The notes: generated by a model from the sequence alone, not told the origin. A stretch of 64,000 nt of DNA from an uncultured Alphaproteobacteria bacterium (GCA_963741735.1 CAVUJB010000004.1:167684-231683), one strand, 5' to 3'; numbered from the stretch's first letter, positions 7,236 through 62,653 are shown. Made by a program: numbers and translations.

Positions 7236-7238
7236 CTG

Positions 7239-31581: not shown

Positions 31582-31727
31582 GAAACTTGCCCTTCGAATT
31601 CGACCGATGGCTCTCCAGCCATCGATACACCATTACGCTTGACAAGCATATAACGTTTGGATGAACTTCTGCACCAAAACGTCAGACGCGGGCCGCACGA
31701 TCTTCGGCGACGCTATCGGGGGGAAAC

Positions 31728-33921: not shown

Positions 33922-34014
33922 GGACATGCTGAGGGCGATAGTCGACTCAGACCCGCGGCGTAGTCTCCAAGTAGGATCGGGAGCTCCACTTTCGAACGCG
34001 CTTGAGGCATCCCA

Positions 34015-45600: not shown

Positions 45601-46060
45601 AGCCGATGTCCTTAGCTGTCGCGGCGGCATCTTCGGCGGTCTTCAATATGTTCTGGCTGCCGGGGACAATCGGGATCCCGAGGGACTTCGCCAGCTCTCG
45701 CGCTTTTGTCTTGTCGCCGAACAACGCCAACGTCTCGGGGCGCGGGCCGATGAAGACAATGTTCTCCTCGGCGCAGCGCCGGGCGAAGGTCGCGTTCTCC
45801 GCCAGGAAGCCATAGCCGGGATGGATGCAATCGCAGGCGGTAGCCTTCGCGGCCGCGATCAGACCTTCGATGTCGAGATAGGCGCGCACCGGATCACTCG
45901 TCGCGGCTAGGGCATGCGCATGGGACGTGACGCGGGTGTGGAGGGATAGAGCGTCCGCTGGGGCGTAGACGCCAACCTGCTCGATGCCGAGGGCGGCCGC
46001 GGCGCGCGCGATGCGGATGGCGATCTCGCCGCGATTGGCAATCAGGACACGTTTGAACAA
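42668..46060 (-). CDS. single-chain biotin-dependent acyl-CoA carboxylase (BC + BCCP + carboxyltransferase fused)
   Basis: N-terminal biotin carboxylase (FKRVLIANRGEIAIRIARAA.., ATP-grasp), biotinyl domain with AMKME, and a C-terminal acyl-CoA carboxyltransferase domain of about 530 aa. Preferred start is TTG 46060 (GGAGAG upstream, giving MFKRVLIANRGE). The ORF track extends to ATG 46132. Confidence 0.88.
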   Translation of the reverse strand: MFKRVLIANRGEIAIRIARAAAALGIEQVGVYAPADALSLHTRVTSHAHALAATSDPVRAYLDIEGLIAAAKATACDCIHPGYGFLAENATFARRCAEENIVFIGPRPETLALFGDKTKARELAKSLGIPIVPGSQNILKTAEDAAATAKDIGYPVMLKAAAGGGGRGMRAVSSADELPAAFARCQSEAEAAFGNGAVFVEKLIARPRHIEVQILADIHGHVVHLYERDCSVQLHNQKMIEIAPAPNLEASLRERILADAVKLAHASKYVNVGTVEFLVDPDRGTYYFIECNPRIQVEHTVTEQVTDVDLVEAQFAIAAGATLKSLGLGEQSAVREPRGFAIQCRIIAKGVGAFTAYKEPAGPGIRVDSCGYLGYAPPPQFDPMFGKLICWSNSTQSYASAIGRSLRALDEFHISGLSTNLHQLRAILSRPEVRAGDARTSLLSEHPDLASTASKASNSLSLFEQQARALSRAAAPMALPVLSAPSLAVREGDEAAESPMGGSIVEVPVKAGETVNAGDTLMVISAMKMETTVTAPCAGTIRELQPLAKGDTVAAGQIVATITPSARTADAKSREYGPESWAPVLKEVHTLQDLAHRRFAPDSKDPGVVRQRNRGKLTCRERIDLLLDEDSFREVGSLAGFASYDADGVISDFTPANHVGGWGKIKGRTAIVCADDFTSRGGHADGAIGQKSRYLDELSLDLRCPSIRLLDGSSGGGSVAAMVPKQQHEGESAAKESSGAITAGRPRVSGSGGSMLPGHLGSAMYARQLSEVPVVNVLLGSVVGIGAAKAVLGHFSVMVRDIAQLFVAGPPVVSHAMGYDITKEDLGGWHIHCRNGSVDNLAETEEDAMEQTRRFLSYLPSSVFEPMPVITSNDPTDRREEELFTIIPRKRTTTFDVRRAIRLMADKGSFFEIGPLWGTDQVTGFARFGGYPVGVIASDSRHVNGGALTADGCDKLRRHLDLCDLFHIPLLNLNDNPGFAVGLEHEIAGTIRKGGEWMIAFAQVKVPVFTVILRRSFGVAGNNYATPKGHASARVVWPAADVGGIPPEGGIEAAYKRQLAEAADPVALRAEINARIESARGPIGPLNKFQMEEMIDPRDTRRYVCEWVENAHRIVSQPSFLGSRALQFRP

Positions 46061-46751
46061 GAGGCTCTCCGGCGTTGCTGGCCGGCGCCGATTGTGCCGG
46101 GGCTTACCGGGCAAGTGCAAATTGGACGGCAAGGCGCCCGATCCGGCTCGGGCGCCACCTATCGCTGCGACACGCGAGGCAATCGGACCAGCTTCTCATC
46201 GGCCGCCGCGCCTGCAAACGACGCCAGAACCGGCTGATGAGCGACAGCGCCGTGTCGGCAAGCTACTCGTGCGATTCCAATGGCCGGCGCGCCGCCAAGA
46301 GGGTGCTGGGCGCACCAACCAACTTCCCGCACGACGGCGACAGCAAGATCGCCGAATATGGTGCCGGTCGCGACCTGGTCCGGTCCGCGCGTCACTGAGT
46401 CCGCACAATCCCTATCGAAGACCTTGCCCGCCTGAATTTCTCGGTCACACGAGCCCAGCGTGCGATGGACGCTTCGAAGGCGCTCTTCGTCGATGCCCTA
46501 TGTGCACGCAGAAGGCCCAGCAGAATGTCGATGATCGGGTAGACCACCGGGGCCATGGCTGCAGTTCTCACGGGTGGACGGTCTCGAAAAAGGGATCTGC
46601 CCGCGAAATTGGCGACTGAGAGGCTCCATTATGTTGAATTTGCCCGTGTTAGGTATTTGAAAACGCAGAATAAAACGCGAGATGTCGCTGCGTCGCCGCG
46701 TCTGCGAAGGAACCGTGGCGGCCATTTCGCAACTGCGGCAAAGTGCATGGA

Positions 46752-49700: not shown

Positions 49701-50063
49701 GTAAACGGCCGTAATGTGCCGTTGAAACCCATCTCGCTTGGCGATGCGGTCGGCGGCGTGCGCTTTCGCACATGGCTGCCCGCGAGTACGCTGCATCCGA
49801 CGATTCCATCGCATGCGCCGCTCATCTGCGAAGTGTGGGACGGTTGGCGCAAGCGGTCGCTGGGAGGCTGCACCTATCATGTCGCGCATCCGGGGGGCCG
49901 CAACTACGTGACGTTTCCCGTCAACGCCTACGAGGCTGAGGGCCGGCGTCTCGCGCGGTTCGAGCCATTCGGGTTCACCGGCGGTGTCTTCGAGCCACCG
50001 GCGGAAGACGCGCATCCCGATTTTCCGCATACGCTCGATCTTCGGCGCGCGCCCAACAAATGA
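46752..50063 (+). CDS. large transglutaminase-like protein (Bact_transglu_N + transglutaminase core + DUF2126-type C-terminal region)
   Basis: ATG 46752 (MSIQVALRHSTRYRYDRP..). Cys-His-Asp triad context GSCRDSAWLL.. / DLHAWCEVYLPGAGWVGLDPT. A conserved extension of about 800 aa, giving a protein of about 1100 aa. Confidence 0.85.
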   Translation: MSIQVALRHSTRYRYDRPINLGPQIVRLRPAPHCRTPILSYGLAISPGEHFLNWQQDPQSNWLGRVVVPEKTEYLTVTVDLTAELNVINPFDFFLEPEAEVFPFKYPAELLEDLSPFFQKAKAGERFDAYLASVPRIEKPTTGFLFDLNAKLQDDISYLIRMEPGIQTPDETLESRAGSCRDSAWLLVQLLRHLGLAARFASGYLVQLKPDQKSLDGPSGAEQDFTDLHAWCEVYLPGAGWVGLDPTSGLFAGEGHIPLACTANPTNAAPITGSLDECEVSFEFEMSITRVAEPPRVTKPYSDEQWRAIDKLGDHIDRLLHEGDVRLTMGGEPTFVSISDMDGAEWTTAAVGPDKRGLADTLIRRLQKRFAPGGLLHYGQGKWYPGESLPRWAFGLYWRGDGLPLWRDVDRIARERDDHKPTTEDASNLVRGIARRLDIHPDYAMPAYEDVWHYLAQERGLPINVDPLNSKLDDPEIRSRIARVFERGLNKVVGYVLPVQRWNAPDRRRWRSDRWVTRAERLQLIPGDLPVGFRLPMGALPWLPETARPYIPPPDPFDKFPPLPERDSYRQPYLSGHIRDAAWEARKARVEQEQPVENAPVRTALTVEPRAGRLSVFMPPTENAADYLDLLAAIEDASAEIGVAVHIEGYPPPYDPHINVIKVTPDPGVIEVNIHPARNWREQVAITEAIYEEARQSRLGTEKFMLDGRHTGTGGGNHIVLGAATPADSPFLRRPDLLRSLVAFWQNHPSLSYLFSGMFIGPTSQAPRIDEARLDSLYEMEIAFDEVPDPANGNIPPWLVDRIFRNLLIDVSGNTHRTEICIDKLYSPDGPTGRLGLVEFRGFEMPPHPEMSLAQGLLLRALVARFWREPYKPKLVRWGTALHDMFMLPHFVWADFLDVISDLNAHGFAFDVEWFRPHWAFRFPLAGKVQYGGVALELRQALEPWNVMGEEGAVGGTVRFVDSSVERLEVKASGLVAGRHKILVNGRNVPLKPISLGDAVGGVRFRTWLPASTLHPTIPSHAPLICEVWDGWRKRSLGGCTYHVAHPGGRNYVTFPVNAYEAEGRRLARFEPFGFTGGVFEPPAEDAHPDFPHTLDLRRAPNK

Positions 50064-52603
50064 GCCAGTCGGACATCACATCCGAACCTGCATGGCGCGA
50101 CATGCTGCGGCTGGCGCGCTACGACGAATTGCGCGACGCAAAGGGCCATGTTCGCGCCGCATGGAAGCCGTTGGCCGACGTCGTCACTTCCATGCCGGTC
50201 GAGGAATATGCCCGCCGCGCCGCGGCCGCACAGGCGGCGATCAGCGAGAACGGCGTTACGTACAATGTGTATGACGATGCCGAAGGGCAGGCGCGGCTCT
50301 GGCAGCTCGATATCCTGCCGTTTGTGATCGGCGCCTCCGATTGGGCGGCGATTGAAGCGGGTATCGTTCAGCGCGCACATCTTTCCAATGCCGTGCTGCA
50401 GGACATATACGGTCCGCAACGCCTGATAGCCGATCGATTGTTACCGCCGCATCTGGTGCTCGGCCATCCGCAGTTTCTCAGGCCGCTGGTTGGCATCACG
50501 CCACCGCAGGGCGTGCACATCCACCTCTATTCCGCCGACTTGGCGCGGATGCCGGATGGCTCATGGAAGGTCCTGGCGAGCCGCGCCGACGCACCCAGCG
50601 GCATTGGATATGCGCTCGAAAACCGGATCGTGACAGGCGGCACGTTCCCCGATCTCTTCAACGATATGCGTGTGCGGCGGCTTGCATCGTTCTTCAGCAC
50701 GCTGCGCGAGAGCGTGTTGTCCCTGGCCCACAAACGCAACGGCCGCATGGTTCTGCTGACCTCGGGCCCGCACAACGAGACCTATTTCGAGCACGCTTAC
50801 CTCGCACACTATCTGGGTCTTACGCTGGTCGAAGGTGACGATCTGACCGTGCGCGATGGGCAGGTGTTTCTCAAGACGCTGCTGGGTCTGGAGCGCATTG
50901 CGGTCATATTCCGCCGCGTCGACTCCGACTACTGCGATCCATTGGAATTTCGTGGCGATTCCGCGCTCGGTGTCCCGGGCCTCACGGACGCGGCGCGCGC
51001 CGGCGGCGTTGTCCTCGCCAATGCACTTGGCGGTGGCGTGATGGAGTCGCCCGCCATGGACGCGTTCCTGCCTGGCTTGTGCCGTGCCCTGCTCGGGGAA
51101 GAATTGAAAATTCCCGACATTCCCACCGTGTGGTGCGGAACGGAGTGGGGCCGCAAGGAAGCTTTCGCACGGCTGGATCGCGTTGTGGTACGCGACGCAT
51201 TCGATGCGCGGCCTCTGTTTTCGCGGCAGTCCTCCGCGCGTCTCGGAAGCGAGCTTTCGATGAGCCAGATCGAAGTGCTAAAGGAACGCATCGCGCGCCG
51301 AGGCGCCACCGTGGTGACGCAGGATGCGGTGCCGCTCGGCCTGGCGCCGATCTATCAGAGTGGAAGATTCGGGACGAAGCCCGTCAACCTTCGCGTGTTC
51401 GCCGCTTGGACGTCGCAAGGCTATATCGTCATGCCAGGCGGCTTGGTGCGCGTCGCACCTGACGATCACGCACGCACGCTATCGATTCAATCGGGCGCGA
51501 CCAGCAAGGACGCATGGGTTCGCGGCGAGGGGCCGGCCGACACGTTCAGCCTCCTGCGGCCCAGCGCACGCGAGCCGGAAATCCGCCGCACTGGCGAAGC
51601 GCCGCCGAGCCGGGCGATGGATAATCTATTTTGGCTCGGTCGCTATATCGAGCGTGCCGAGAATCTCGTCCGCGTGTTGCGTGCCGTGACGGAGCGGCTA
51701 GGCGAAGACCCAGCCTTCGTAAGCGACATCGCCGACCGATTTCTGTTCCGCAATGCCAAAGTGCAATCGCAGATGAACCGTGAGGTCGCGGCCGGAGATG
51801 ATGCCACGCTTCTGTCTGGGTTGCGCGCGCTTATCTATGACCGCAAACAGCCGCAAGGCCTTCAGCAACTCCTCACCCGGGCGCGCCAAACAGGATGGTC
51901 CGCGCGCGACCGGCTATCGCTGGACACGTGGCGCGTGATCCAACTCATGACGGAGCGCGCCCAGGCACCGGAATCTGTAACGCTGCTCGACACCAGTCAG
52001 GCGCAGGCCTACCTCGACCAGCTCGTACGGCGCGCGGCCGCCTTTTCCGGCTTGTGCGCCGAGAATATGACGCGAGGTCCGAACTGGCTGTTCGTCGATC
52101 TGGGCCGGCGTATTGAGCGCGCCGCGCATTTAAGTTGGCTCGTCGGCGAGGCGGTGGGAACTGTTTCGGAAGTCGAGGTTCAGCACATTCGCGCCATACT
52201 CGAAATCGCCGACAGCGCGATGACCTATCGCTCGCGAAACCTGAACCTGTTCGATGTCCCGCCGCTCATCGATCTTCTGCTTCTCGATGAAAGCAATCCG
52301 CGCAGCACGGCGTTTCAGCTTGCGGCGATCGAGCGCAATCTCAAGGAATTGCCGCGCATCACGCCGGCACAGCGGCACGGAGGTGCCTTCAATATCGCGA
52401 GCGATGCACGCTTCGCCGCAATGCGCGCCAATTCCCTGAGTTTGGCCGAGGCCTCCGAAAGCGGTAAGCGGACCGAGCTGGTGCAATTCACCGACAGGAT
52501 CGCAGACGCGATGTCGCATGTCTCGGATGCGATAACCGATGCCTATTTTCAGCATTCCATCCGCTTGCGCACCGGCGCAGCGCCGGCGCGTGAGGTGCAG
52601 TGA
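50060..52603 (+). CDS. circularly permuted type-2 ATP-grasp protein fused to an alpha-E domain
   Basis: ATGA overlap with the upstream gene. The N-terminal ~480 aa match the COG2308-type pattern (..GVTYNVY.D..G..R.W.LD.LP.. ; ..FRRVD.D.CDPLE.R.DS.LGVPGL). The C-terminal ~330 aa match the alpha-E/COG2307 pattern (SRAMDNLFWLGRYIERAENLVRVLR). Confidence 0.85.
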   Translation: MSQSDITSEPAWRDMLRLARYDELRDAKGHVRAAWKPLADVVTSMPVEEYARRAAAAQAAISENGVTYNVYDDAEGQARLWQLDILPFVIGASDWAAIEAGIVQRAHLSNAVLQDIYGPQRLIADRLLPPHLVLGHPQFLRPLVGITPPQGVHIHLYSADLARMPDGSWKVLASRADAPSGIGYALENRIVTGGTFPDLFNDMRVRRLASFFSTLRESVLSLAHKRNGRMVLLTSGPHNETYFEHAYLAHYLGLTLVEGDDLTVRDGQVFLKTLLGLERIAVIFRRVDSDYCDPLEFRGDSALGVPGLTDAARAGGVVLANALGGGVMESPAMDAFLPGLCRALLGEELKIPDIPTVWCGTEWGRKEAFARLDRVVVRDAFDARPLFSRQSSARLGSELSMSQIEVLKERIARRGATVVTQDAVPLGLAPIYQSGRFGTKPVNLRVFAAWTSQGYIVMPGGLVRVAPDDHARTLSIQSGATSKDAWVRGEGPADTFSLLRPSAREPEIRRTGEAPPSRAMDNLFWLGRYIERAENLVRVLRAVTERLGEDPAFVSDIADRFLFRNAKVQSQMNREVAAGDDATLLSGLRALIYDRKQPQGLQQLLTRARQTGWSARDRLSLDTWRVIQLMTERAQAPESVTLLDTSQAQAYLDQLVRRAAAFSGLCAENMTRGPNWLFVDLGRRIERAAHLSWLVGEAVGTVSEVEVQHIRAILEIADSAMTYRSRNLNLFDVPPLIDLLLLDESNPRSTAFQLAAIERNLKELPRITPAQRHGGAFNIASDARFAAMRANSLSLAEASESGKRTELVQFTDRIADAMSHVSDAITDAYFQHSIRLRTGAAPAREVQ

Positions 52604-53484
52604 TGGAATACGGAGTCCGTCACCGCACGTTGTATCGCTATGCGCAGAATGTCTCATATTCCTGCCATTTGGCCCATCTGACGCCGCGCGACACGCCGGT
52701 GCAGCGCGTCGAGGAAGCAGGCATCCGTATCTCGGTGCCCGTCGCCCAGCGGCATGCGATCACGGACTTTTTCGGCAACGCAGCGGAATGGTTTGCGATC
52801 GAACAGCAGCACACCGTGCTGGAGATCGTTTCCTATAGCCGCGTGCATGTAGCGCCGCCTTGGACGCTCGCCGCCGAACAATCGCTGTCGTGGGAGCAGG
52901 TTCACGCCCAGATGGAACAGGATCACGACCCTGAGGCGCGAGATGTCGTTCAATATCTATTTGACTCGCCGCTTGGTACGCCGACAGCGGCCATGACGGC
53001 CTATGCCGTGAAAAGCTTTCCGCCCAGGTGCCCTGTCCTCGTCGGTGCGCTTGATCTGATGCATCGTATCCATAAGGACTTTCGCTACGACACAACAGTG
53101 ACCGACGCGACGACACCGGTCGATCGCGTGTTTGAGATGCGCTCGGGCGTGTGTCAGGATCTCGCGCATATGGGGATCGCGAGCCTGCGCGCGCTGGGCC
53201 TGCCGGGACGTTATGTCAGCGGATATCTTCTGACCGAACCGCCGCCCGGCAAACCGCGCCTGCTCGGTGCCGATGCCAGTCATGCGTGGTTCTCGGTGTG
53301 GGCGCCGCCCTTCGGCTGGGTCGATCTCGATGCGACGAACGACATGCGTCCGGGCGACGGCCATGTAACTTTGGCATGGGGCCGCGATTACAGCGACGTA
53401 GCGCCGATCAATGGCGTCATCACCGGCGGCGGCGATCACGTCGTGGAAGTCGGCGTTGATGTTGTGCCGGTGGAAATGGGATGA
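52603..53484 (+). CDS. transglutaminase-family protein (Bact_transglu_N + core)
   Basis: The start overlaps the upstream stop (GTGATG; GTG 52600 or ATG 52603). Catalytic context GVCQDLAHMG.. / ASHAWFSVWAPPFGWVDLDATN. Confidence 0.88.
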   Translation: MEYGVRHRTLYRYAQNVSYSCHLAHLTPRDTPVQRVEEAGIRISVPVAQRHAITDFFGNAAEWFAIEQQHTVLEIVSYSRVHVAPPWTLAAEQSLSWEQVHAQMEQDHDPEARDVVQYLFDSPLGTPTAAMTAYAVKSFPPRCPVLVGALDLMHRIHKDFRYDTTVTDATTPVDRVFEMRSGVCQDLAHMGIASLRALGLPGRYVSGYLLTEPPPGKPRLLGADASHAWFSVWAPPFGWVDLDATNDMRPGDGHVTLAWGRDYSDVAPINGVITGGGDHVVEVGVDVVPVEMG

Positions 53485-53774: not shown

Positions 53775-54362
53775 ATGTCCGCCACGACGAACAGGGTTTT
53801 CGATTTCAAGGGGCTGAACCATCTGGCTCTGGTCTGCAAGGACATGGCCCGGACGGTCGACTTTTACAGCAACGTCCTTGGCATGCCGTTGATCAAGACG
53901 ATCGATCTTCCCAATGGCATGGGCCAGCACTTCTTTTTCGACATCGGCAACGGCGATTCTTTGGCCTTCTTCTGGTTCCCCAATGCACCTGAAGCGACCC
54001 CAGGCGTCGCCGCAGCGGGCAACCTTCCTGGTAGCGGCAAGTCCATCGCGTCGGGCCATGGCTCCATGAACCATGTTGCCTTCAACGTCCCTGCCGAGAA
54101 GATCGACGAATATCATGAAAAGCTGGTCGCCCGCGGCGTCGAATGCACGAAGGTGGTCAATCACGACGACTCGCCGCGACAGATCAGCGAGGACGTCTCG
54201 TCCAGTACCTTTGTGCGGTCGATCTATTTCTTCGATCCCGACGGGATCTGCCTGGAGATTGCGACCTGGACGCGCGTTCTCGACCCGAAAGTCGAAGTTC
54301 GTCATGAGCCGGTTGACGCCCTCGGGCACAAGAAGGCGGTGGCCCTGGAGCCTGCGGAATAA
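53775..54362 (+). CDS. VOC (glyoxalase/bleomycin-resistance/extradiol dioxygenase fold) family protein
   Basis: ATG 53775 (GGAGGAG upstream). GLNHLALVCKDMARTVDFYSNVLGMPL and MNHVAFNV...IYFFDPDGICLEI form paired beta-alpha-beta-beta-beta modules. Confidence 0.8.
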   Translation: MSATTNRVFDFKGLNHLALVCKDMARTVDFYSNVLGMPLIKTIDLPNGMGQHFFFDIGNGDSLAFFWFPNAPEATPGVAAAGNLPGSGKSIASGHGSMNHVAFNVPAEKIDEYHEKLVARGVECTKVVNHDDSPRQISEDVSSSTFVRSIYFFDPDGICLEIATWTRVLDPKVEVRHEPVDALGHKKAVALEPAE

Positions 54363-54510
54363 CGCAAGCGAGCTATCGGCAAAGCTTGCCCGCGATACAT
54401 TCGCGGTGGCAAGAGTGTCGTGCTTCACGCCGCTGCGCCTCACAGTGCATGAGTTCACCTCGACCGTGAAGACCCACAACGACGGCGCATTCGCGACACC
54501 CGTGGACCAG

Positions 54511-55497
54511 ATGACGGCAGCGCTTCGCGAAGCCGGCATTTTGGCGAACGGCAGCATTGCCAGGCTTGTGCCGCTGACGGGCGGTGTGTCGTCGGCAATC
54601 TTTCGCGTCGATCTGCCGGGTGGTCCGATCTGCATCAAGCAGGCGTTGGAAACGCTCAGGGTGGCGGCCGAGTGGCATGCGCCCGTGGAGCGATCGGCCA
54701 GCGAAGTCGCGTGGATTCGTGAGGTTGCGAGCATCGATGACTCGCTCGTGCCCCACATCTTGTTCGCGGACGATCGGCGCCATCTCTTCGCGATGGCGTA
54801 TCTCGAACCCGACACGCATCCCTGTTGGAAGCCGCTTCTTGCGGGCGGCACTGCGAACTCCGGGTTCGCCGGCAAGGTCGGAGATGCGCTCGGTCGCATT
54901 CATGCCAGCACCGCCTCATCCGCCGCATTGGCAAGGCAATTCGCGCATGCCGCGCTGTTTGAAGCCCTGCGCATCGACCCCTATCTCGTGCATGCGGCCA
55001 AGCTGCATCAGGATCTCGCGCCGCAACTGCATATGATCGCCGACGGCCTCCGCGCCTCTCGCCGCGCGCTCGTGCATGGAGATGTCAGTCCGAAGAACAT
55101 CCTGTGTGGACCGCGCGGACCGGTTTTCCTCGACGCCGAATGCGCCTGTTTCGGCGAGCCGGCATTCGATCTGTCCTTCTGCCTTTGTCATCTTCTTCTG
55201 AAGGGGGTCTGGCATCCCGAGCACGGCGCCGGGTACGCGCGCTGTGCCGACGCGCTCATTGCGCGCTATCGTCCGCATGTCGACTGGGAGGACTGGACGG
55301 ATTTCGAGCCGCGCGGTTCGCGTCTTCTGGCAGCTCTGCTTCTGGCGCGTGTGGACGGCAAGTCGCCGGTCGAATATCTGACGGACGACGGACGAAAGTC
55401 ATTCGTGCGCGACTTTGCGCGAAGCAGGCTCGCGGGCCAGACTCTCAGCCTCGACGATCTGCGGAAGCAGTGGTGGGAAGGGACCAGCCTGTTGTGA
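54511..55497 (+). CDS. aminoglycoside-phosphotransferase-fold (APH/choline-kinase-like) small-molecule kinase
   Basis: Catalytic loop HGDVSPKNIL and metal-binding FLDAE. N-lobe ..SSAIFRVDLPGGPICIKQA. The start could be ATG 54511 or an upstream GTG. The stop overlaps the next gene's start. Confidence 0.75.
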   Translation: MTAALREAGILANGSIARLVPLTGGVSSAIFRVDLPGGPICIKQALETLRVAAEWHAPVERSASEVAWIREVASIDDSLVPHILFADDRRHLFAMAYLEPDTHPCWKPLLAGGTANSGFAGKVGDALGRIHASTASSAALARQFAHAALFEALRIDPYLVHAAKLHQDLAPQLHMIADGLRASRRALVHGDVSPKNILCGPRGPVFLDAECACFGEPAFDLSFCLCHLLLKGVWHPEHGAGYARCADALIARYRPHVDWEDWTDFEPRGSRLLAALLLARVDGKSPVEYLTDDGRKSFVRDFARSRLAGQTLSLDDLRKQWWEGTSLL

Positions 55498-56801
55498 GAA
55501 CTCGCATTGCTCGCATCAAGGGGCGTCAGATCTGGGATTCGCGCGGCCGGCCGACGGTCGAGGTCGATGTCACGCTCGCCTGCGGCGCTCTGGGCCGGGC
55601 CGCTGCGCCCGCCGGTGCGTCGCGCGGCCGCTTCGAGGCCATCGACCTGCGCGACGGTGGCACGCGATTTGGCGGGTTCGGCGTCGAGAATGCGGTCGCC
55701 CATGTGAGGGGCGACATTGCAGCCGCTTTGACGGGAATGGATGCAGCCGATCAGACGGCGATCGACGCGCAGCTTGCGGCGCTGGACGGTACCGCGAATT
55801 TCTCCCGGCTTGGCGGCAACGCTTGCGTCGCGGTTTCGCTGGCGGTGCTGCACGCCGCGGCGGCGGCCGAATCCCTGCCGTTATGGCGCTACCTCGCCGG
55901 CAACACCAAACCGCGCATCCCTCTTCCGGAAATCCAGATCTTCGGCGGTGGGGCGCATGCGGGGCGGCGCATCGACATTCAGGACCTGATGATCATGGTA
56001 CCTGGCGTCGACAGCGCGCGGGAGGCTTTGGAAGTCACCGGCGATGTATATCGCGCAGCCGGCCGGTTGATGGAAGAAAGCGGCAATCTGGCGGGTACGG
56101 CGGATGAAGGCGGCTGGTGGCCGGTCTTCGGAACCAATGAAGAGGCGCTGGAAACCCTCGTTCGCGCGATCGAGGCGGGGGGGCATCGCCCGGGCGAGGA
56201 CGTGTTCATTTCGCTCGACATCGCGGCCAGCGAGTTTCACAAGGACGGCCGATATCACCTGGCGCTGGACCGGTCCGAGCTCACGTCCGACGAGCTGGCG
56301 GCGCTGGTCGAAGGCTGGTCGCGGCGCTTTCCGATCCTGTCGATCGAGGATCCGGCAGGTCAGGATGACGCGGCAACCATGCAAAAGATCACGGCCGAAC
56401 TCGCCTCGCGATGCCAGATCATTGGCGACGATTTTCTGGTGACCGATGCCTCACGCGTCGACGCCGCGGCTGCAAATGGCGCCTGCACTGCCGTGCTGGT
56501 GAAGGTCAATCAGGCCGGCACCGTCACGCGGGCGTGCGCTGCCTTGCAGGCGGCGCGGCGCTACGGTTGGGCATCGATCGTCTCCGCCCGATCGGGAGAG
56601 ACGGAAGATACCTCGATCGTCGATCTCGCGGTGGGATGGGACGCCGGCCAGCTCAAGGTCGGATCCTTCGCCCGTTCCGAGCGCATGGCGAAGTGGAATG
56701 CATTGCTGCGCATCGAGGAAGAAATGGGCGCAGACGCCCGGTTTGCGGGCTGGGACGCATTCCCCGACACGCTGCAACGGCCAACAGCTCGCACCTCATG
56801 A
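55494..56801 (+). CDS. enolase-family protein (divergent paralog with active-site substitutions)
   Basis: GTG 55494 overlaps the kinase stop (GTGA). Enolase motifs are present: DSRGRPTVEV, ADEGGW, LDIAASEF, LSIEDP, IGDDFLVTD, VKVNQAGT, SGETED, RSERMAKWNALLRIEEE. Canonical QEFMI is QDLMI here, and SHRSGETED is SARSGETED. Confidence 0.85.
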   Translation: MRTRIARIKGRQIWDSRGRPTVEVDVTLACGALGRAAAPAGASRGRFEAIDLRDGGTRFGGFGVENAVAHVRGDIAAALTGMDAADQTAIDAQLAALDGTANFSRLGGNACVAVSLAVLHAAAAAESLPLWRYLAGNTKPRIPLPEIQIFGGGAHAGRRIDIQDLMIMVPGVDSAREALEVTGDVYRAAGRLMEESGNLAGTADEGGWWPVFGTNEEALETLVRAIEAGGHRPGEDVFISLDIAASEFHKDGRYHLALDRSELTSDELAALVEGWSRRFPILSIEDPAGQDDAATMQKITAELASRCQIIGDDFLVTDASRVDAAAANGACTAVLVKVNQAGTVTRACAALQAARRYGWASIVSARSGETEDTSIVDLAVGWDAGQLKVGSFARSERMAKWNALLRIEEEMGADARFAGWDAFPDTLQRPTARTS

Positions 56802-57743
56802 ACGTCGTCCTGCATTACCGCGCCAGCGATGGTTTTCGGCGCCAGATCGAAGCCGTGCGCGGCCCGGACATCGACGTCATCATCGTCGACGAGGCCGACG
56901 ATGACGCGTTCCGGGCGGCGATGCGCGACGCCGAAGTCCTGTTGCACGTCCTGCGGCCCGTCCGTGCGGAAGATATTGCGGGGGCGCCTCGTCTGAAGCT
57001 GATCCAGAAGATCGGTGTCGGCGTGAACACGATCGATCTCGAGGCTGCGAAGGCGCGCGGCATTGCGGTCTGCAACATGCCGGGCAGCAACAGCCAGGCG
57101 GTAGCCGAGATGGCCCTGATGCTCATGCTCGCTGCTTTGCGCCGCACGAATGTCTTCGACCCGGCGACGCGCCAGGGCAGGGGTTGGCGGCCGGATCTCG
57201 CGGAACTCGATAAAACCGGTGAGATCGGCGGCCGCACGGTGGGCCTCGTTGGATACGGTGCTGTCGCGGCGAGGCTTGCCGTCGTCTTGCGCGCACTGGG
57301 GGCGACCGTAATCTACACCGCGCGTACGCCGCGACAGGATGCGGCCGGCGACTTCGTGGTGCTGGACGAGTTGCTGGCGCGATCGGACATCGTATCGCTC
57401 CATGTTCCTTTGACGCCCGAGACGCGCGGACTGATCGGCCGCGCCGCCATCGGCCGGATGAAGTCAGGCGCGATTATCGTCAATACCGCGCGCGGCGACC
57501 TGGTCGACGAAGCCGCGCTCGTGGACGCCTTGCGGTCTGGTCATATTGCAGCGGCCGGTCTGGACGTCTTCGCACGCGAGCCCGCCAATTCAGCCAATCC
57601 GCTGTTCGGTATTTCCGAGTGTTATCGCGATGCCGCACATTGCGTGGCTGACACCCGAGACGTTGATGCGCAGTCTTGCGATCGCGATGGAGAACTGCCG
57701 CCGCGTGGCTCGGGGCGAAGCCCTCTTGCACAGGGTGATTTGA
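56798..57743 (+). pseudogene. D-isomer-specific 2-hydroxyacid dehydrogenase, frameshifted near the 3' end (or 1-nt assembly error)
   Basis: ATGA overlap with the enolase stop. NAD motif GLVGYGAVAARLA, then ..NTARGDLVDE..AGLDVFAREP..NPLFGI in frame. The conserved end SVIAMPHIAWLTPETL...GEALLHRVI* is in the +1 frame. Removing one T from TTT 57612-57614 restores it. Span length is 3n+1. Confidence 0.8.
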
Positions 57744-57744
57744 A

Positions 57745-58452
57745 ATGTCCGGTGCACGCCCGCCTGTCGTTTTGATCGGCGGCCAGCTCTGTACGGAACG
57801 GCTGTGGCAGGGTCAGCTGCCGGCCCTGCGCGCCCTCGGAGATGTGATCGTCGCCGTCCTGGGGGACGACGACACGATCACAGCGATGGCCCAGCGGCTT
57901 CTGCATCAGCTGCCGCCGCGATTTTCGGTGATCGCCCACGCCATGGGCGGGTTCGTTGCATTCGAAATGCTGCGGCAGGCGCCGGAACGAATGCATTGCC
58001 TTGCACTGCTCAGCACACTCGCACCGGCGGACACCGCTGTTCAGACTGCACGGCGCGAAGGGTATCTACGTCTTGTCGAGGCAGGGAATTTCGCCGGCGT
58101 GGTCGAGGAGCGTATCCCGATCCTGCTTCACCCCGACCGGCGCGGCGATAGTGCTCTTGTGGACGTTGTTCGCTCCATGGCCGCCAGCACGGGAGCCGAC
58201 GCGTTTTTGCACCAACAGCGTGCGATCATGACGCGCCCGGATAGCAGGCCCGGTCTTCCTGCGATTGCCTGTCCGACGCTCATCGTGTTTGCGCGCCAGG
58301 ATGGCATCGTGACGCGCGAGCACCAGGAGGAAATGCTTTGCGCTATCCCCGGTGCGCGGCTCGAGATCGTCGAGGATTGCGGCCACATGATGACCTTGGA
58401 ACAGCCGGAGCGCGTTGCGAACCTGCTTGCCGGCTGGATTGCCGCCAACTAG
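57745..58452 (+). CDS. alpha/beta-hydrolase-fold protein lacking the nucleophile serine
   Basis: Typical fold pattern (PPVVLIGG.., ..DCGHMMTLEQP). The nucleophile elbow reads AHAMGG instead of GHSMGG. Starts 1 nt after the restored dehydrogenase stop. Confidence 0.75.
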   Translation: MSGARPPVVLIGGQLCTERLWQGQLPALRALGDVIVAVLGDDDTITAMAQRLLHQLPPRFSVIAHAMGGFVAFEMLRQAPERMHCLALLSTLAPADTAVQTARREGYLRLVEAGNFAGVVEERIPILLHPDRRGDSALVDVVRSMAASTGADAFLHQQRAIMTRPDSRPGLPAIACPTLIVFARQDGIVTREHQEEMLCAIPGARLEIVEDCGHMMTLEQPERVANLLAGWIAAN

Positions 58453-59498
58453 CCGATCTCGGCTCGCACGATGCGCGCGCCGTCGGCCATGGCCTTGAGC
58501 TTGGCGAATGCCGTTTCGCGCGAAAGATATTTCATGCCGCAATCGGGTGCGACCATCAGCCGGTCTGCGCTCACATAGGGTAGGGCGGCGCGAATGCGCG
58601 CGGCGACGGTCTCCGCCGTTTCGACGCTCGGATCGTTCAGATCGAGAACACCCAGCATGATTGTCTTCGTGCGCAGGTCGCGCAGAACGGAAGGATCGAG
58701 TCTGGGTTGCGCCGCTTCCAGTGAGATGATGTCGATCGCGGAATCCTCCAGCGCCGAAAGATACGAGTAGCCGCTCGGTTTGGCCGCGCCCTTGTGGACA
58801 TGGGCGTACCCGAAGCAGATGTGAAGGGCCGTCTTTCCCTTGACGCCGTCAACGGCGCGATTCAAGGCCTTGATGGCATATTTGCTGGCCTGTTCGGCCC
58901 GCGCCTGAAGATAAGGCTCGTCCAGCTGCACGATGTCCACGCCGGCGGCGAACAGGTCATTGATCTCGGCGTTCACGGCATCGGCATAGTCGAGCGCCAG
59001 CGCTTCGTCCGTCGGGTAATGGTCGTTCTGCGCCTGCTGGGTCATCGTGAACGGACCAGGGATCGTGATCTTGATCGGAAGGTTGGTGTAGCGCTTCACA
59101 AGAGCGACATCCTGTGCCTCGATCGACTCTCTTCGGCGAATGGGCCCGGCGACCCGCGGAACGGGGTTCGATGCGCCGGTGCGGTCCATCGCGGTACCTG
59201 GCCGGTCGATGTCGATGCCGCTAAGCGCGTTGGCAAGGCGGTTGGAGTAGCTTTCGCGCCGCATCTCGCCATCGCCGATGATATCGATTCCGGCGAGCAT
59301 CTGGTCGGTCACAGCGACGATGGTGGCGTCGTCCTGCGCCTGTTGCAGTTGGGCCGGAGGCACGCGCCACAGCTCCTGGGCGCGTACCCGCGGCGGGAGT
59401 CGGCTCTTCAACCGCTCGCGATCGATCAACCATTCCGGCTGCGGGTAGCTGCCCACAATCGCAGTCGGGAGAAGCGGAAGCTGCATGAGGATGTCCAA
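58449..59498 (-). CDS. cobalamin-independent methionine synthase (MetE) C-terminal-domain-like family protein
   Basis: About 345 aa of single-domain MetE-like TIM barrel: LPTAIVGSYPQP.W, ..DGEMRRESY.., HICFGY, VAPDCGMKYL (Zn-ligand Cys context). The start may be the internal ATG at MQLPLL. Confidence 0.75.
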   Translation of the reverse strand: MDILMQLPLLPTAIVGSYPQPEWLIDRERLKSRLPPRVRAQELWRVPPAQLQQAQDDATIVAVTDQMLAGIDIIGDGEMRRESYSNRLANALSGIDIDRPGTAMDRTGASNPVPRVAGPIRRRESIEAQDVALVKRYTNLPIKITIPGPFTMTQQAQNDHYPTDEALALDYADAVNAEINDLFAAGVDIVQLDEPYLQARAEQASKYAIKALNRAVDGVKGKTALHICFGYAHVHKGAAKPSGYSYLSALEDSAIDIISLEAAQPRLDPSVLRDLRTKTIMLGVLDLNDPSVETAETVAARIRAALPYVSADRLMVAPDCGMKYLSRETAFAKLKAMADGARIVRAEIG

Positions 59499-59548: not shown

Positions 59549-59560
59549 GTTAGATATCTA
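59549..59560. promoter_or_regulatory. palindrome TAGATATCTA (candidate MarR operator, site 1)
   Basis: gtTAGATATCTA: a perfect 10-bp palindrome in the divergent region between the MetE-like gene and the MarR gene. The core GTTAGATATC recurs at 61341-61350. Confidence 0.4.
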
Positions 59561-60162
59561 TGGATTTATCGGGTTTCGTGGGCGTGGCGTTTGAAGTTTT
59601 CGGTGCATCGGGTCATATGGCTGTGCCACACCCCACCTTGAAGCCCATGGCTCAACGCAAGCCGCTATCCACTGCGAAGCAATATGAGGATCCACTTAAC
59701 AGCTTCGGTTATCTGTTCCGGATCGCATTTCGTTCATTCTCCAGAGCGCTCGAGCGTCGCACGCTGCCCTTCGGGGTCAGCAGCGGGCAATGGCGCTTCC
59801 TCCGCGTGCTTTGGAATGAAGACGGCTTGACTCAAATCGAGCTGAGCCGACGCGTGGGCATGCGCGAACCCACCACCGTAGCCGCCGTGAACGGATTGGA
59901 GCGTGCCGGATATGTGGAACGACGCAAAAGCGCGACGGACCGCAGGAAGATTCATATTCATCTGACCGCCCGCGCCCGCCGCCTCAAGGACAAACTCATG
60001 CCCTACGTGGCGGAGGTGAACGAAATCGGGATGAAGGGGCTGACGCCGCAGGAAACGGCGCTCATCCGCCAGGCTCTCCTGAAGGTGATCGACAATCTCG
60101 GCCTCGACGACGGAGATTCTTATCAGGATGCGCGTGTGCGCAGCGGCTATGCCGAAGAGTGA
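59560..60162 (+). CDS. MarR-family transcriptional regulator
   Basis: wHTH GLTQIELSRRVGMREPTTVAAVNGLERAGYVERRKSATDRRKIHIHLT. The true start is probably an internal ATG (59617 or 59647, MAQRKPLS..). Confidence 0.85.
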   Translation: MDLSGFVGVAFEVFGASGHMAVPHPTLKPMAQRKPLSTAKQYEDPLNSFGYLFRIAFRSFSRALERRTLPFGVSSGQWRFLRVLWNEDGLTQIELSRRVGMREPTTVAAVNGLERAGYVERRKSATDRRKIHIHLTARARRLKDKLMPYVAEVNEIGMKGLTPQETALIRQALLKVIDNLGLDDGDSYQDARVRSGYAEE

Positions 60163-60165
60163 CGA

Positions 60166-61296
60166 TCAGCTCTTGGCCGAAATCCAGGCTGCCATCAAAT
60201 CCACCGCCCCTTCGCGGTTCCGTTCGGAGTCTTCGAAATAGTGTGCTCCGGGCACGAGCTCGAGTTTCTTGTCCTTCGCTCCGATGAAATCGAAGATCTT
60301 GCGAGCGTCGGACGGGAAGACGCCCTGATCGGCGGTACCCTGGACGACGAGAGCGGGCGCCGTGAACTTCGCCAGATGGCTCTGGCCCTGGCACTTTGAG
60401 GTCTCCAGACTCCACATCGAGAGCCACGTCTTCAACGTGTTCATTCTTCCAATGCCGGGGAAGCGGTTTGCCTGGGCAGGGTGACCCCGGTAGCAGCCGG
60501 GACAAATTCGGTCCGAAGGATCGATTGCCGGATCCATGCATCGCAAGTCGCCCCATGTGCGATAGAGCGGAAAGAGGATATCCGGGACGCCGGCCGCATT
60601 GACCCGGGCGAGCTCGTTCTTCGCCCAGTCCGTGATGCGCTGATTGCGGGCGCGCTGTGCCGCCCGGTAGCGCTCGGTAAACGCGGCGGAGTAGGGCGGG
60701 CCGTTGTCGGGATTGAACGGGTTGAGGGATTCGTCTGTTTTGGTCGGGTCGAACTCGTCGACCACCGAGGCATCCATCCAGTCCGTAAGCACTTCAGGGC
60801 GCCCTTGATGCGCGTTGAGCGAGATATAGAAATCGGCGCGAACAAGCGCGCCGAGAGCGTCCCGCGCTGCCCCGCTTGTGTCATTTGTGAGCGTGGGAGC
60901 GATGGCTTCCGCCTGGTACGCGCCCATCAGCGAGCCGCCTCCCGAATTTCCCAGAATGACAATGGTATCGACCCCGGCTTCGTCCTTCAGCCAGCGCATG
61001 CCGACGCCGATGTCGATCAACGCATGCTCGAGGAGGAATTGGTCCTCGGCACCGCGGTAACGCGTGTTCCATCCGAGAAAGCCGAGACCGCGCGCCGCAA
61101 AATATGGCGCAATATAATGCTCCGCGAAGTCCACGTTGTAATGGGTCGCGATCAACGCGACGCGCGGGCGCTTGCCCTTGGGCGTCCAGTAGATGCCTTG
61201 GCAGGGATGGCCGCCGGCCTGGATGCGCGGCGCCGTTGGCGAAACCTTGCCGATGAAAACGCGATCGACGGCCGACAGCAAATCCGATTGCGCCAT
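60166..61296 (-). CDS. alpha/beta hydrolase
   Basis: Nucleophile elbow GNSGGG within an alpha/beta pattern. 376 aa. The stop lies 3 nt from the MarR stop (convergent). Confidence 0.75.
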   Translation of the reverse strand: MAQSDLLSAVDRVFIGKVSPTAPRIQAGGHPCQGIYWTPKGKRPRVALIATHYNVDFAEHYIAPYFAARGLGFLGWNTRYRGAEDQFLLEHALIDIGVGMRWLKDEAGVDTIVILGNSGGGSLMGAYQAEAIAPTLTNDTSGAARDALGALVRADFYISLNAHQGRPEVLTDWMDASVVDEFDPTKTDESLNPFNPDNGPPYSAAFTERYRAAQRARNQRITDWAKNELARVNAAGVPDILFPLYRTWGDLRCMDPAIDPSDRICPGCYRGHPAQANRFPGIGRMNTLKTWLSMWSLETSKCQGQSHLAKFTAPALVVQGTADQGVFPSDARKIFDFIGAKDKKLELVPGAHYFEDSERNREGAVDLMAAWISAKS

Positions 61297-61340
61297 GGTT
61301 TTCGTTCCGGTCTTGGCGGGCGGTTAGGCCCGCAGAGAAA

Positions 61341-61350
61341 GTTAGATATC
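61341..61350. promoter_or_regulatory. GTTAGATATC motif (candidate MarR operator, site 2)
   Basis: aaaGTTAGATATCGAag lies 45 nt upstream of the hydrolase start (61296). It matches site 1 at 10/10 positions of GTTAGATATC and 9/10 positions of the palindrome. Confidence 0.35.
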
Positions 61351-61459
61351 GAAGAAATACTATTCTCGCCGTTCGCACGGAGTCCAGCCGAACGGCGAGG
61401 AACAAAGGACACGGACGCCGGCACGCGAAGTTCAGTCGTCGCAGGCGCCCGCCATTTCC

Positions 61460-62098
61460 TCAGCGGCTGGAGGTGTCCAGGAAGTCATTGCCGCCGAAAT
61501 TCTCGGGTGCCCTGACTTCGACGATCGGATCGTCACGGTCGTCGAACTCAAGCCGCAATGCCTTCGTCATGACCGCATGCATGTCGTAAAGGCAGGTGAT
61601 GTATGTCAGTTCGAGGATCTCCTCGTCGGACAGAAATGACTTTAACACCGTCATCACTTCTTCCGGCACCCGTCCCCCGGCAAGAACCAGGCAGTCGGTA
61701 TAGGCCAGAACCGCGCGCTCCTGCTCGTTGAACAGCTTCGAGACGGCCCAATGTGGAATCGCGGCAATTCGCTCTTCCGATACTTTAAGTCCGCGCAGGG
61801 ATTTGCAGTGTTGCGAGAAAACGAACTGGCAGCCTCGTGCCCAACCGGCCCGAGTTTGACCGAGCTCGCGTAGAACCGGATCGAGTTTGCGCACCGGCGC
61901 GCGGTACAACGCAAAACCAGAAACCGCATGCTCGAAGATGTCCGGGACGAGCGCAAAAACGGTCCACCAATCGCCCCGTGTGCCCGTCGCCGTGCCGGGT
62001 TGCGTGACCGGATCGCGCGAGCCGAACAGGCGGTCATAGTAGGTGAGGATCGTCTTGTTCGTCGCCTGGCTGCGCGTCACTTGTTTCAGTCTCGGCAT
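61460..62098 (-). CDS. carboxymuconolactone decarboxylase (AhpD-like) family protein
   Basis: ATG 62098 (GGAGGAAGA upstream). ..LRELGQTRAGWARGCQFVFSQHCK..LTYITCLYDMHA.. fits the CMD/AhpD-like helical family. Confidence 0.65.
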   Translation of the reverse strand: MPRLKQVTRSQATNKTILTYYDRLFGSRDPVTQPGTATGTRGDWWTVFALVPDIFEHAVSGFALYRAPVRKLDPVLRELGQTRAGWARGCQFVFSQHCKSLRGLKVSEERIAAIPHWAVSKLFNEQERAVLAYTDCLVLAGGRVPEEVMTVLKSFLSDEEILELTYITCLYDMHAVMTKALRLEFDDRDDPIVEVRAPENFGGNDFLDTSSR

Positions 62099-62152
62099 TT
62101 TCTTCCTCCGTTGTTGGCTGTCTTGCGCCGTGCGCCCGCGCAAATCTGATTG

Positions 62153-62653
62153 TTAGGTAAGCTCGAATATCCAGTGACGGATGCCCCAGCTCATTCTCTG
62201 ACCGCAGCCGACCGCAAGCACTCCGTTCAGCCACTCGTAACGCGGGTCGCTGGTTTCAAACACGAGGGCAATGCGGATGTAATATTGGGAGGGATGCACA
62301 TCCCGTCCTGACGGATCGCGAAATTGCGCCGCCACAGCGTCGCTGATGACGCTTCGGCCGGTGTAAGTCAGATAGACAGATGCTCCATCATGCGTTCTCC
62401 AGACCGCGCGCGCATCGAATGTCCCATAAGTCTTGTTGCCTTCGCCCCGGCCGTTGGTTGGCCAGTTGCCGCCGCCGGGCAGGATTTCTCCCGACAGTCT
62501 CTCCCCGCGAAATTCGCCGCCGGTGACGTAGCCGACGCGGCGCTCGGTGAAGGGTGACCGGCCCAGCGACATGATCGCACCCTCGACCCTGAAGTCGGCA
62601 ACGCAAAGCGGCTGCGAGCCCAATTGCGTCCACGTAAATTCCGCTTCGCTCAT
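62153..62653 (-). CDS. DUF3237 (UPF0311) family protein
   Basis: ..RRVGYVTGGEFRGERLSGEILPGGGNWPT....FDARAVWRTHDGASVYLTYTGR.. matches the DUF3237 beta-barrel signature. Confidence 0.75.
   Translation of the reverse strand: MSEAEFTWTQLGSQPLCVADFRVEGAIMSLGRSPFTERRVGYVTGGEFRGERLSGEILPGGGNWPTNGRGEGNKTYGTFDARAVWRTHDGASVYLTYTGRSVISDAVAAQFRDPSGRDVHPSQYYIRIALVFETSDPRYEWLNGVLAVGCGQRMSWGIRHWIFELT

Follow-up and report, generated by a model that had tools for sequence, protein, structure and literature searches.

A conserved pair of a small-molecule kinase and a modified enolase in an uncultured alphaproteobacterium: a putative route from hydroxy acids to enol phosphates

Enolase (EC 4.2.1.11) is usually treated as a single-function enzyme of glycolysis, and annotation pipelines label every member of its family "eno, glycolysis". 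Here we describe an enolase-family gene that directly follows a kinase gene of the aminoglycoside phosphotransferase (APH) fold in a stretch of 64,000 nucleotides from an uncultured Alphaproteobacteria bacterium (GCA_963741735.1, CAVUJB010000004.1:167684-231683); this whole stretch is referred to below as the window. Several described systems bear comparison with such a pair. The glycerate segment of the serine cycle of Methylobacterium consists of the hydroxypyruvate reductase HprA, the glycerate 2-kinase GckA, the enolase Eno and the phosphoenolpyruvate (PEP) carboxylase Ppc. LvaAB and LvaC of levulinate catabolism and the ACAD10/11 kinase-dehydrogenase fusions are phosphorylate-then-eliminate pairs, in which, as in LxmK/LxmY of the class V lanthipeptides, an APH-fold kinase activates a hydroxyl group and an adjacent or fused partner carries out the elimination. 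PhpH, which acts in phosphinothricin biosynthesis on the way to carboxyphosphonoenolpyruvate, is an enolase homologue that dehydrates a 2-substituted glycerate other than 2-phosphoglycerate (2-PG); it sits in a Streptomyces secondary-metabolite cluster together with a mutase homologue and no APH kinase. Two further systems, the 5-methylthioribose (MTR) kinase MtnK and the diketo-hydrolase pathway for L-rhamnose and L-fucose (LRA5/LRA6 type), are taken up below with the genes that recall them.

The kinase and enolase genes of the window are followed by one for a D-2-hydroxyacid dehydrogenase. The three resemble the serine-cycle segment in their formal chemistry and its sequence of steps, with a reductase of that dehydrogenase family acting before a kinase and an enolase, and, in Rhizobium, by the presence of ppc in the dehydrogenase-kinase operon. 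They differ from it in that the kinase fold is unrelated to the three glycerate kinase classes, the enolase is a modified one dedicated to the module, and the module may act on something other than glycerate. The difference from the LvaAB/LvaC, ACAD10/11 and LxmK/LxmY systems lies in the phosphate, which leaves in those reactions, whereas here the enolase keeps its phosphate site; the phosphate probably stays on the product of the module as an enol phosphate. PhpH, compared by description only, is a precedent for dehydration of a compound other than 2-PG by a member of the enolase family, although the type of cluster and the lack of an APH kinase set it apart. Full-text literature searches revealed no description of a kinase-linked enolase paralogue.

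The pairing of the two genes is widespread. A genome scan, with one genome per species, yielded 80 loci containing the kinase, and 72 of these had enough downstream sequence to be informative. Alpha- and Betaproteobacteria, Acidobacteriota, Methylomirabilales and an actinomycete are represented, at least four phyla in all. The enolase gene lies directly downstream of the kinase gene in 54 of the 72 loci and elsewhere in the locus in 4 more. The distance between the two, extrapolated from tblastn alignments, falls between -30 and +36 nt in 49 of these 54 loci and clusters from -16 to -2 nt. An orthologous dehydrogenase (at least 50% identity) is present in 23 of the 72, and more distant relatives of it adjoin the kinase in Rhizobium, Cupriavidus and Rhodococcus. 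The pair was also seen on named replicons from Methylobacterium, Burkholderia, Caballeronia, Paracoccus, Roseibium, Azospirillum and Rhodococcus. A spacing of about 4-6 kb, with the genes on opposite strands, is found in Rhizobium and Cupriavidus. A first reading of the locus, made from the sequence only, had named conservation of kinase, enolase and dehydrogenase across genera as a mark of a real pathway, and the survey clearly shows such conservation, with the unit of selection being the kinase plus the enolase, often with the dehydrogenase. In addition, an exhaustive search of 1.84 billion cluster representatives found full kinase::enolase fusions in two distant lineages (P0245, 770 aa; P0291, 745 aa), as well as one truncated third case. 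The kinase halves of these fusions are orthologous to the window kinase, with 35-38% identity, and retain the motif LARVDGKSPVEYL.

By its domains, the window enolase is a clear member of its family (PF03952, 2e-48; PF00113, 6e-83). It scores 462.5 bits on TIGR01060, the cut-off being 300, and the best PDB enolase in the alignment shares 46.6% identity with it. We compared 58 kinase-linked enolases, including the window copy, using yeast numbering and a solved canonical enolase as the reference. Ser39, His159, Gln167, Glu211, Asp246, Glu295, Asp320, Lys345, Arg374, Ser375 and Lys396 are kept in the window enolase and in 57-58 of the 58. The canonical metal ligands (Asp246, Glu295, Asp320 and Ser39), the general base (Lys345) and the phosphate site (Arg374/Ser375) are therefore shared, as are the fold and the pair of domains. 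Unlike canonical enolase, all 58 have Asp in place of Glu168 and Ala in place of His373, as do 8 of 8 on the named replicons (66 of 66), in which the residues listed above are likewise kept. The window enolase therefore lacks the Glu168/His373 pair by which a phosphopyruvate hydratase would be recognized. Further consistent changes, around the C3 pocket, are NGG to GGG, GDEGG to ADEGG and KTG to KVG, with Ala to Trp in the subclade of the window. A second subclade, with the gene order enolase-kinase, is found in Methylobacterium nodulans and Rhodococcus and also has the Asp/Ala pair. In the enolase of E. coli, Glu167 and His369 form hydrogen bonds with the group that matches the C3-OH of 2-PG (PMC6863902). 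Because these counterparts of Glu168 and His373 contact the C3-OH, the clade has altered the leaving-group side of its pocket and kept the machinery for phosphate, carboxylate, metal and base. An extra anion in the substrate had been considered because of Arg159 and Arg160; this idea is weakened, as outside the window's subclade neither residue is conserved in the clade with Asp168 and Ala373 (the D/A clade).

Among the 150 nearest representatives at 50% identity, 86 are canonical (Glu, His), 37 have the Asp/Ala pair, their own genomic context not having been examined, and about 25 have other non-canonical pairs. By their residue pattern, the D/A enolases are a distinct clade and not decaying copies. 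That one or both positions are non-canonical in about 40% of the 150 points to a large, over-annotated radiation, and the NCBI pipeline labels the D168/A373 enolases of loci L091-L097 "phosphopyruvate hydratase (eno), glycolytic process". No second enolase was found within the 64-kb window. In B. pseudomallei, Rhizobium, Rhodococcus and Methylobacterium, copies lie on accessory plasmids, which implies a second enolase there; the chromosomes of these species carry a housekeeping eno. Linked or fused to the kinase and plasmid-borne in several species, the D168/A373 enolase is probably distinct from the housekeeping enzyme, and the core of the locus is not accounted for by housekeeping glycolysis.

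The kinase belongs to the APH fold by its PF01636 domain, catalytic loop, metal-binding Asp and N-lobe Lys, and an AlphaFold2 model (pLDDT 91.7) and Foldseek agree with this assignment. A search returned at least 8,000 proteins at E ≤ 0.001, and the 120 matches listed are mostly about 333 aa long. The open reading frame (ORF) extends upstream to 54073, and translation probably starts at the ATG given in Table 1, since the homologues, at about 333 aa, align from MTAALREAG onward. The catalytic HGDVSPKN (an HxDxxxxN loop), LDAE and K43 of the N-lobe are invariant in 29 homologues, which also share the motif LARVDGKSPVEYL and many invariant Arg and Lys residues. These last make the kinase compatible with an anionic substrate. 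The sequence-only reading had held the fold to be unrelated to that of glycerate kinases, correctly: a Pfam scan of the kinase matches APH alone and neither Gly_kinase nor MOFRL/DUF4147, the families sought for glycerate kinase classes I-III. The top Foldseek matches to the model, and the closest solved structures, are MTR kinases (TM about 0.8, 14-17% identity); PsiK, corramycin phosphotransferase and further small-molecule kinases come next, and LxmK is also among the structural hits. The resemblance to MtnK extends to a weak similarity in the sequence of the N-lobe. However, the window kinase is about 70 residues shorter and scores 50.8 bits on TIGR01767, the MTRK equivalog model, against a cut-off of 275 and with coverage of the N-lobe only; no other methionine-salvage genes are linked to it. 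Judged by its model, then, the protein would be a small-molecule kinase with an MTR-kinase-like structure that is not MtnK. Methionine salvage, which an MTRK-like kinase, a MetE-like protein, a cupin and a CtBP-like dehydrogenase might together suggest, was rejected on three grounds: the kinase scores too low on the MTRK model, genes for MtnA, MtnB and MtnC are not linked to it, and the chemistry of enolase requires an alpha-carboxylate.

The dehydrogenase has both the catalytic (PF00389) and the NAD-binding (PF02826) domain, and its nearest solved relatives are D-3-phosphoglycerate dehydrogenases and one glycerate dehydrogenase/glyoxylate reductase. In the window, an insertion of one base within 57610-57614 ("tattt") breaks its frame just upstream of the catalytic-His motif MPHIAW, which is therefore out of frame, and the C-terminal 44 codons run in another frame to the TGA at 57741-57743. 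The dehydrogenases of loci L003, the nearest relative, and L103 are intact at this site, and a DNA alignment shows the one extra base in the window. Upstream and downstream of the shift alike, identity to L003 is about 81%, and dN/dS for the N-terminal part is 0.14. Since the downstream segment retains 81% identity when read in the correct frame, the shift is either recent or an assembly error at the short T run. A generally error-rich assembly is argued against by the long neighboring ORFs (1,154, 1,106 and 847 aa), which are open throughout.

It was proposed at the outset that this operon might be a decaying set of paralogues, as judged from the frameshift, from the substitutions in the enolase and from the change of a nucleophile Ser to Ala in the alpha/beta-fold protein encoded after the dehydrogenase. 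Comparison with relatives leaves only the +1 frameshift as a sign of decay. The other two changes are invariant across orthologues and are family traits under purifying selection. Indeed, each of the nine genes compared with L003 has a dN/dS within 0.03-0.17 (0.06 for the VOC protein, 0.10 for the enolase, 0.12 for the alpha/beta-fold protein and 0.03 for a 376-aa protein encoded nearby), the post-shift part of the dehydrogenase is conserved as described, and homologous loci such as L001-L003 are intact rather than uniformly pseudogenized. A pseudogenized operon, for which a single shift before the catalytic His is the remaining evidence, is thus hardly credible, and the idea has been largely refuted.

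The setting of the module in other genomes points to acids as substrates and to a product of the PEP type. In Rhizobium sp. CIAT894 and R. indicum, a LysR gene accompanies ppc, dehydrogenase and kinase genes in that order, and a D/A enolase lies about 4 kb away beside a two-domain VOC protein and a cupin. The order in Cupriavidus necator is MFS, FAH hydrolase, dehydrogenase and kinase, with VOC, cupin and enolase genes set opposite, and in Rhodococcus it is FAH, dehydrogenase, enolase, kinase and FAH. A plasmid of B. pseudomallei has an SDR, two UxuA-type dehydratases, an SMP-30 lactonase, an FAH protein, the kinase, the enolase and a sugar ABC transporter. In Paracoccus seriniphilus and Roseibium aggregatum, a LacI gene stands next to kinase, enolase, FAH, one or more SDR and sugar ABC transporter genes, and these operons contain no classical dehydratase. 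With their SDR, SMP-30 lactonase, FAH and sugar ABC components, the B. pseudomallei, Paracoccus and Roseibium operons resemble the LRA5/LRA6-type pathway. That pathway, however, ends in pyruvate and lactate without a kinase or an enolase, and the model for 2,4-didehydro-3-deoxy-L-rhamnonate hydrolase gives the FAH proteins of these sugar clusters 352-426 bits, short of its cut-off of 500. From this similarity they are predicted to be diketo-acid hydrolases that would release pyruvate and a 2-hydroxy acid. The pair is preceded in Azospirillum brasilense Sp7 by a TRAP transporter, a PEP-mutase-superfamily protein and GntR. Acid-type MFS, TRAP and TTT transporters adjoin the module elsewhere, as do regulators of the LacI, GntR, LysR and MarR types. 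A Rhizomicrobium-like contig without the kinase has the order VOC, MFS, CoA transferase, HMG-CoA-lyase-like protein, enolase, dehydrogenase and alpha/beta-fold protein. We found no conserved upstream pathway: 152 Pfam families are represented among the 103 nearest neighbors of the pair, none of them in more than 7 loci.

Some neighbors of the module and of the kinase were observed that stand apart from this pattern. In Rhizomicrobium-like genomes (L004, L013, L022, L024, L049 and L089/L090), stand-alone kinase orthologues lie directly after a divergent thiC (in L089 at about 7001-8023), and a minus-strand VOC gene follows in L013, L022 and L049, and also in L007. On plasmid pMNOD02 of M. nodulans, thiaminase II (tenA) adjoins the enolase-kinase pair (L091 4012-7927). 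A link to thiamine was set aside as probable synteny, as the TPP riboswitch near the stand-alone kinases is on the thiC strand and belongs to the divergent thiC, not to the kinase. Genes for 3-hydroxybutyryl-CoA dehydrogenase and acyl-CoA dehydrogenase flank the module in Rhizobium and Rhodococcus, which belong to different phyla (L092 1-1985, L097 1-1901, L093 9197-11318), and in M. nodulans an acyl-CoA dehydrogenase and a PaaI thioesterase are encoded about 6 kb from it.

A general scheme that accommodates these data, and that we consider about equally likely to be right or wrong, is that of a functional conserved module that converts a hydroxy acid to a 2-phospho-hydroxy acid and this in turn to an enol phosphate. 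The dehydrogenase would reduce a 3-hydroxy (or 3-X)-2-oxo acid to a D-2-hydroxy acid; alternatively, the acid could be supplied by the C-C hydrolase or lyase that is encoded beside the module in other genomes. The MTR-kinase-like kinase would phosphorylate the 2-OH of a D-2-hydroxy carboxylic acid with a leaving group or a hydroxyl on C3, glycerate being the minimal and simplest candidate and one that would fit all of the contexts. The enolase would bind the resulting 2-phospho-carboxylate in the canonical manner, the conserved Lys would abstract the proton from C2, and the group on C3 would be eliminated to yield the enol phosphate. The product, PEP or a 3-substituted PEP, would enter central metabolism by way of PEP carboxylase or pyruvate kinase. 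Reduction followed by phosphorylation and elimination had already been suggested in the sequence-only reading, and this chemistry fits every context found, including that of ppc beside the dehydrogenase and kinase genes in Rhizobium; in the window itself, the gene for the first step is frameshifted.

Because the residues that contact the C3-OH are replaced and the enolase is kept adjacent or fused to the kinase across phyla, the kinase product is probably not ordinary 2-phospho-D-glycerate and is probably an analogue of it that the housekeeping enolase cannot process. More specifically, and with confidence that falls a little short of even, we propose that the D168/A373 enolases have a new activity and form with the kinase a "phospho-dehydratase/lyase" system that acts on something other than 2-phospho-D-glycerate. 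One candidate reaction would form PEP from a 2-phospho-3-X-propanoate by beta-elimination of a group other than hydroxyl, as in the conversion of 3-sulfolactate to PEP and sulfite, which would be the reverse of ComA; no sulfite exporter or oxidase was seen among the 25 ORFs annotated within 28-64 kb of the window or among the nearest neighbors, and sulfolactate is entertained within this proposal only. Another candidate substrate is the L-enantiomer of 2-phosphoglycerate, arising from the diketo-hydrolase routes for L-sugars. A third is offered by longer 2,3-dihydroxy or sugar acids, the ATP-activated dehydration of which would give 3-substituted PEP analogues and would fill the missing dehydratase slot of the Paracoccus and Roseibium operons.

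Several considerations weigh against the general scheme. Conservation, coupling, fusions, the residue pattern and purifying selection are shown by the data, but the order of the steps, the site of phosphorylation, the substrate and the product of the module are all matters that we infer. The frameshift in the window dehydrogenase, if real, leaves the three-step scheme incomplete in this organism. No enolase gene is near the kinase in 14 of the 72 loci, and in the Rhizomicrobium-like genomes the kinase and an enolase-dehydrogenase unit are unlinked. The flanking genes are so diverse that no single upstream pathway can be read from them, and the presence of two UxuA-type dehydratases in the B. 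pseudomallei cluster speaks against a general role as a "sugar-acid dehydratase". Finally, as the window enolase passes the NCBI eno equivalog model, it may have plain activity on 2-PG.

This last point leads to a simpler explanation, in which D-glycerate, formed from hydroxypyruvate by the dehydrogenase, is phosphorylated by the kinase as a non-orthologous glycerate 2-kinase, and the enolase, as an extra isozyme, turns the normal 2-phospho-D-glycerate into PEP, the whole being an analogue of the HprA-GckA-Eno-Ppc segment of the serine cycle. The kinship of the dehydrogenase with phosphoglycerate dehydrogenases and glycerate or glyoxylate reductases, the adjacent ppc of Rhizobium, the retention of all phosphate-, carboxylate- and metal-binding residues and the TIGR01060 score are in accord with it, and the neighbors that resemble L-rhamnonate diketo-hydrolases would free a C3 hydroxy acid from hexose-derived substrates. 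We nevertheless regard a glycerate pathway of this kind as rather unlikely. A housekeeping enolase would suffice for normal 2-PG, yet a special enolase is adjacent to the kinase in 75% of the loci and fused to it in two lineages, and the two residues that contact the C3-OH are invariantly replaced. Variants of yeast enolase at E168 are reportedly some five orders of magnitude less active.

If the enolase did not act in a pathway with the kinase, the two might still be inherited together because the kinase phosphorylates the enolase-like or another protein, or because unrelated substrates are involved and the co-inheritance has some other cause. Some APH-fold proteins are protein kinases, and the kinase is alone in 14 of the 72 loci. 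Such regulatory or non-catalytic coupling appears improbable to us, since the closest structural relatives of the kinase (MTR kinase, PsiK and corramycin phosphotransferase) act on small molecules, the enolase keeps its full set of catalytic metal and base residues under strong purifying selection, and a fusion of two enzymes usually marks consecutive steps. A cassette for resistance to, or bypass of, a toxin that targets enolase, such as an SF2312-like phosphonate, would combine an insensitive paralogue with inactivation by the APH kinase and the VOC protein under MarR control. APH-fold kinases and VOC proteins are classic antibiotic-modifying families, the VOC protein is weakly Fos-like, MarR is adjacent, and the pair is often on plasmids in variable contexts. 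Moreover, in E. coli enolase the hydroxyl of SF2312 is contacted by Glu167 and His369 (PMC6863902), so that the D/A changes could lower the affinity for such an inhibitor. What makes resistance quite improbable is the company that the module keeps: a dehydrogenase, catabolic hydrolases, uptake systems of the TonB-receptor, MFS, ABC and TRAP kinds, and regulators of the LacI, GntR and LysR types, which are typical of catabolic genes. The VOC and MarR genes, for their part, are lineage-specific, and no conserved efflux pump or biosynthetic cluster was present among the nearest neighbors surveyed.

Table 1. Genes of the kinase-enolase locus and of the adjoining island, with positions counted from the first nucleotide of the window.
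Feature	Position	Strand	Length or start	Domain evidence
VOC protein (glyoxalase/bleomycin-resistance/dioxygenase fold)	53775..54362	+	195 aa	Pfam PF00903, E=8e-20
Small-molecule kinase, APH fold	54511..55497	+	homologue-supported ATG 54511	Pfam APH
Enolase-family protein, kinase-linked D168/A373 clade	55494..56801	+	435 aa, GTG start	Pfam Enolase_N + Enolase_C
D-isomer-specific 2-hydroxyacid dehydrogenase, frameshifted	56798..57743	+	ATG start	Pfam 2-Hacid_dh + 2-Hacid_dh_C
Alpha/beta-hydrolase-fold protein without nucleophile Ser	57745..58452	+		Pfam Abhydrolase_6/1
Short MetE-like protein, catalytic domain of cobalamin-independent methionine synthase only	58449..59498	-		Pfam Meth_synt_2
MarR-family regulator	59560..60162	+		Pfam MarR
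376-aa protein, weak alpha/beta-hydrolase similarity	60166..61296	-	376 aa	weak Hydrolase_4 and Peptidase_S9 matches
Carboxymuconolactone-decarboxylase (AhpD-like) family protein	61460..62143	-		Pfam CMD
DUF3237 protein	62153..62653	-		Pfam DUF3237

The genes of the locus are listed in Table 1. Listing of the ORFs and direct reading of the sequence, with folds assigned by Pfam and NCBIfam, confirmed the five plus-strand genes first described at 53775-58452, together with their junctions, namely GTGA at 55494-55497, ATGA at 56798-56801, and TGA at 57741-57743 followed by A at 57744 and ATG at 57745. Such overlapping or abutting junctions recur in homologous loci (L001, L002, L003, L085 and L102), and because the same arrangement recurs, the 4-nt overlaps are not due to chance. 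The VOC gene is separated from the kinase gene by 148 nt and is therefore adjacent to it and not translationally coupled. In this same interval (54363-54510), the Phenylobacterium-like loci L001 and L085 have a SnoaL-like gene that is absent from the window, in which the 148-nt gap remains. At the other end, the alpha/beta-fold gene and the MetE-like gene converge, their stop codons sharing 4 nt (58449-58452), which leaves no room for a terminator between them. Scans for promoters and terminators gave nothing above the expectation from shuffled sequence, and an Rfam scan of the window gave no match. A near-identity DNA search against plasmids gave a single match of 119 bp, inside the kinase gene, and the locus is for that reason not a known plasmid segment.

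As a unit, the five genes hold together only in part. The core of kinase and enolase, with or without the dehydrogenase, is conserved as described above, whereas the VOC and alpha/beta-fold proteins are lineage-specific accessories and, like the MetE-like and MarR genes, do not extend beyond the closest lineages (Phenylobacterium-, Caulobacter- and Rhizomicrobium-like genomes). The VOC protein resembles the Fos and glyoxalase I families only weakly, with best scores of 30-42 bits where 120-250 are required, and so falls outside them; a VOC orthologue (56-89% identity) adjoins the kinase in 10 other loci, in variable orientation. The alpha/beta-fold protein, found in 8 loci, has the motif AHAMGG where a serine hydrolase would have its nucleophile in G-x-S-x-G. 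This position is Ala or Gly in 7 of 7 orthologues aligned, and the His and Asp of the triad are kept. The loss of the serine is a family trait, and it suggests a non-hydrolytic role. Decarboxylase or lyase activity is one possibility by analogy, since serine-less alpha/beta-fold enzymes with such non-hydrolytic activity are known.

The MetE-like protein scores 257 bits on PRK09121, with a cut-off of 392. Its gene has the same position in L001, L002, L003, L025, L102 and L103, where the MarR gene is conserved beside it, and a linked copy in L038 is on the opposite strand. In the closest lineages, a larger island adds the CMD, DUF3237 and 376-aa proteins, an FMN reductase, CoA ligases, an MFS transporter and a TonB-dependent receptor. 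Orthologues of the 376-aa protein (54-92% identity) are found in 6 related loci, the CMD protein recurs in L025, L038, L085 and L103, and DUF3237 recurs in L025, L085, L102 and L103. The window has the CMD, DUF3237 and 376-aa genes at 60166-62653. Its module is thus part of a catabolic, MarR-linked island that extends to about 62650 and is probably regulated by the MarR-family protein.

Other genes were noted further upstream in the window. Directly upstream of the VOC gene (46743-53484, plus strand), three translationally coupled genes that appear unrelated to the module encode a transglutaminase-like protein with DUF2126 (1,106 aa), a circularly permuted ATP-grasp protein with Alpha-E (847 aa) and a transglutaminase-like protein (294 aa). 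At 42668-46132 on the minus strand, a single chain of 1,154 aa with biotin carboxylase, biotin carrier and carboxyltransferase domains represents a fused acyl-CoA carboxylase. A cluster at 28434-35220, with a flavin monooxygenase-like protein, a double-length TetR-like ORF (407 aa), a TonB-dependent receptor and a cytochrome P450, looks like a further accessory catabolic set.

All of the parts of the module belong to known families, and the chemistry proposed for it is conventional. What stands out is that a large clade of enolases, in which both residues that hold the C3-OH are exchanged, is tied to a specific kinase across several phyla wherever its context is visible. If the proposal is true, the module would constitute a new route by which hydroxy acids, sugar acids, or 3-substituted lactates such as sulfonated ones reach PEP. 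It would also correct a widespread mis-annotation, and it would add a kinase-plus-enolase mechanism to the ways in which a poor leaving group can be removed.

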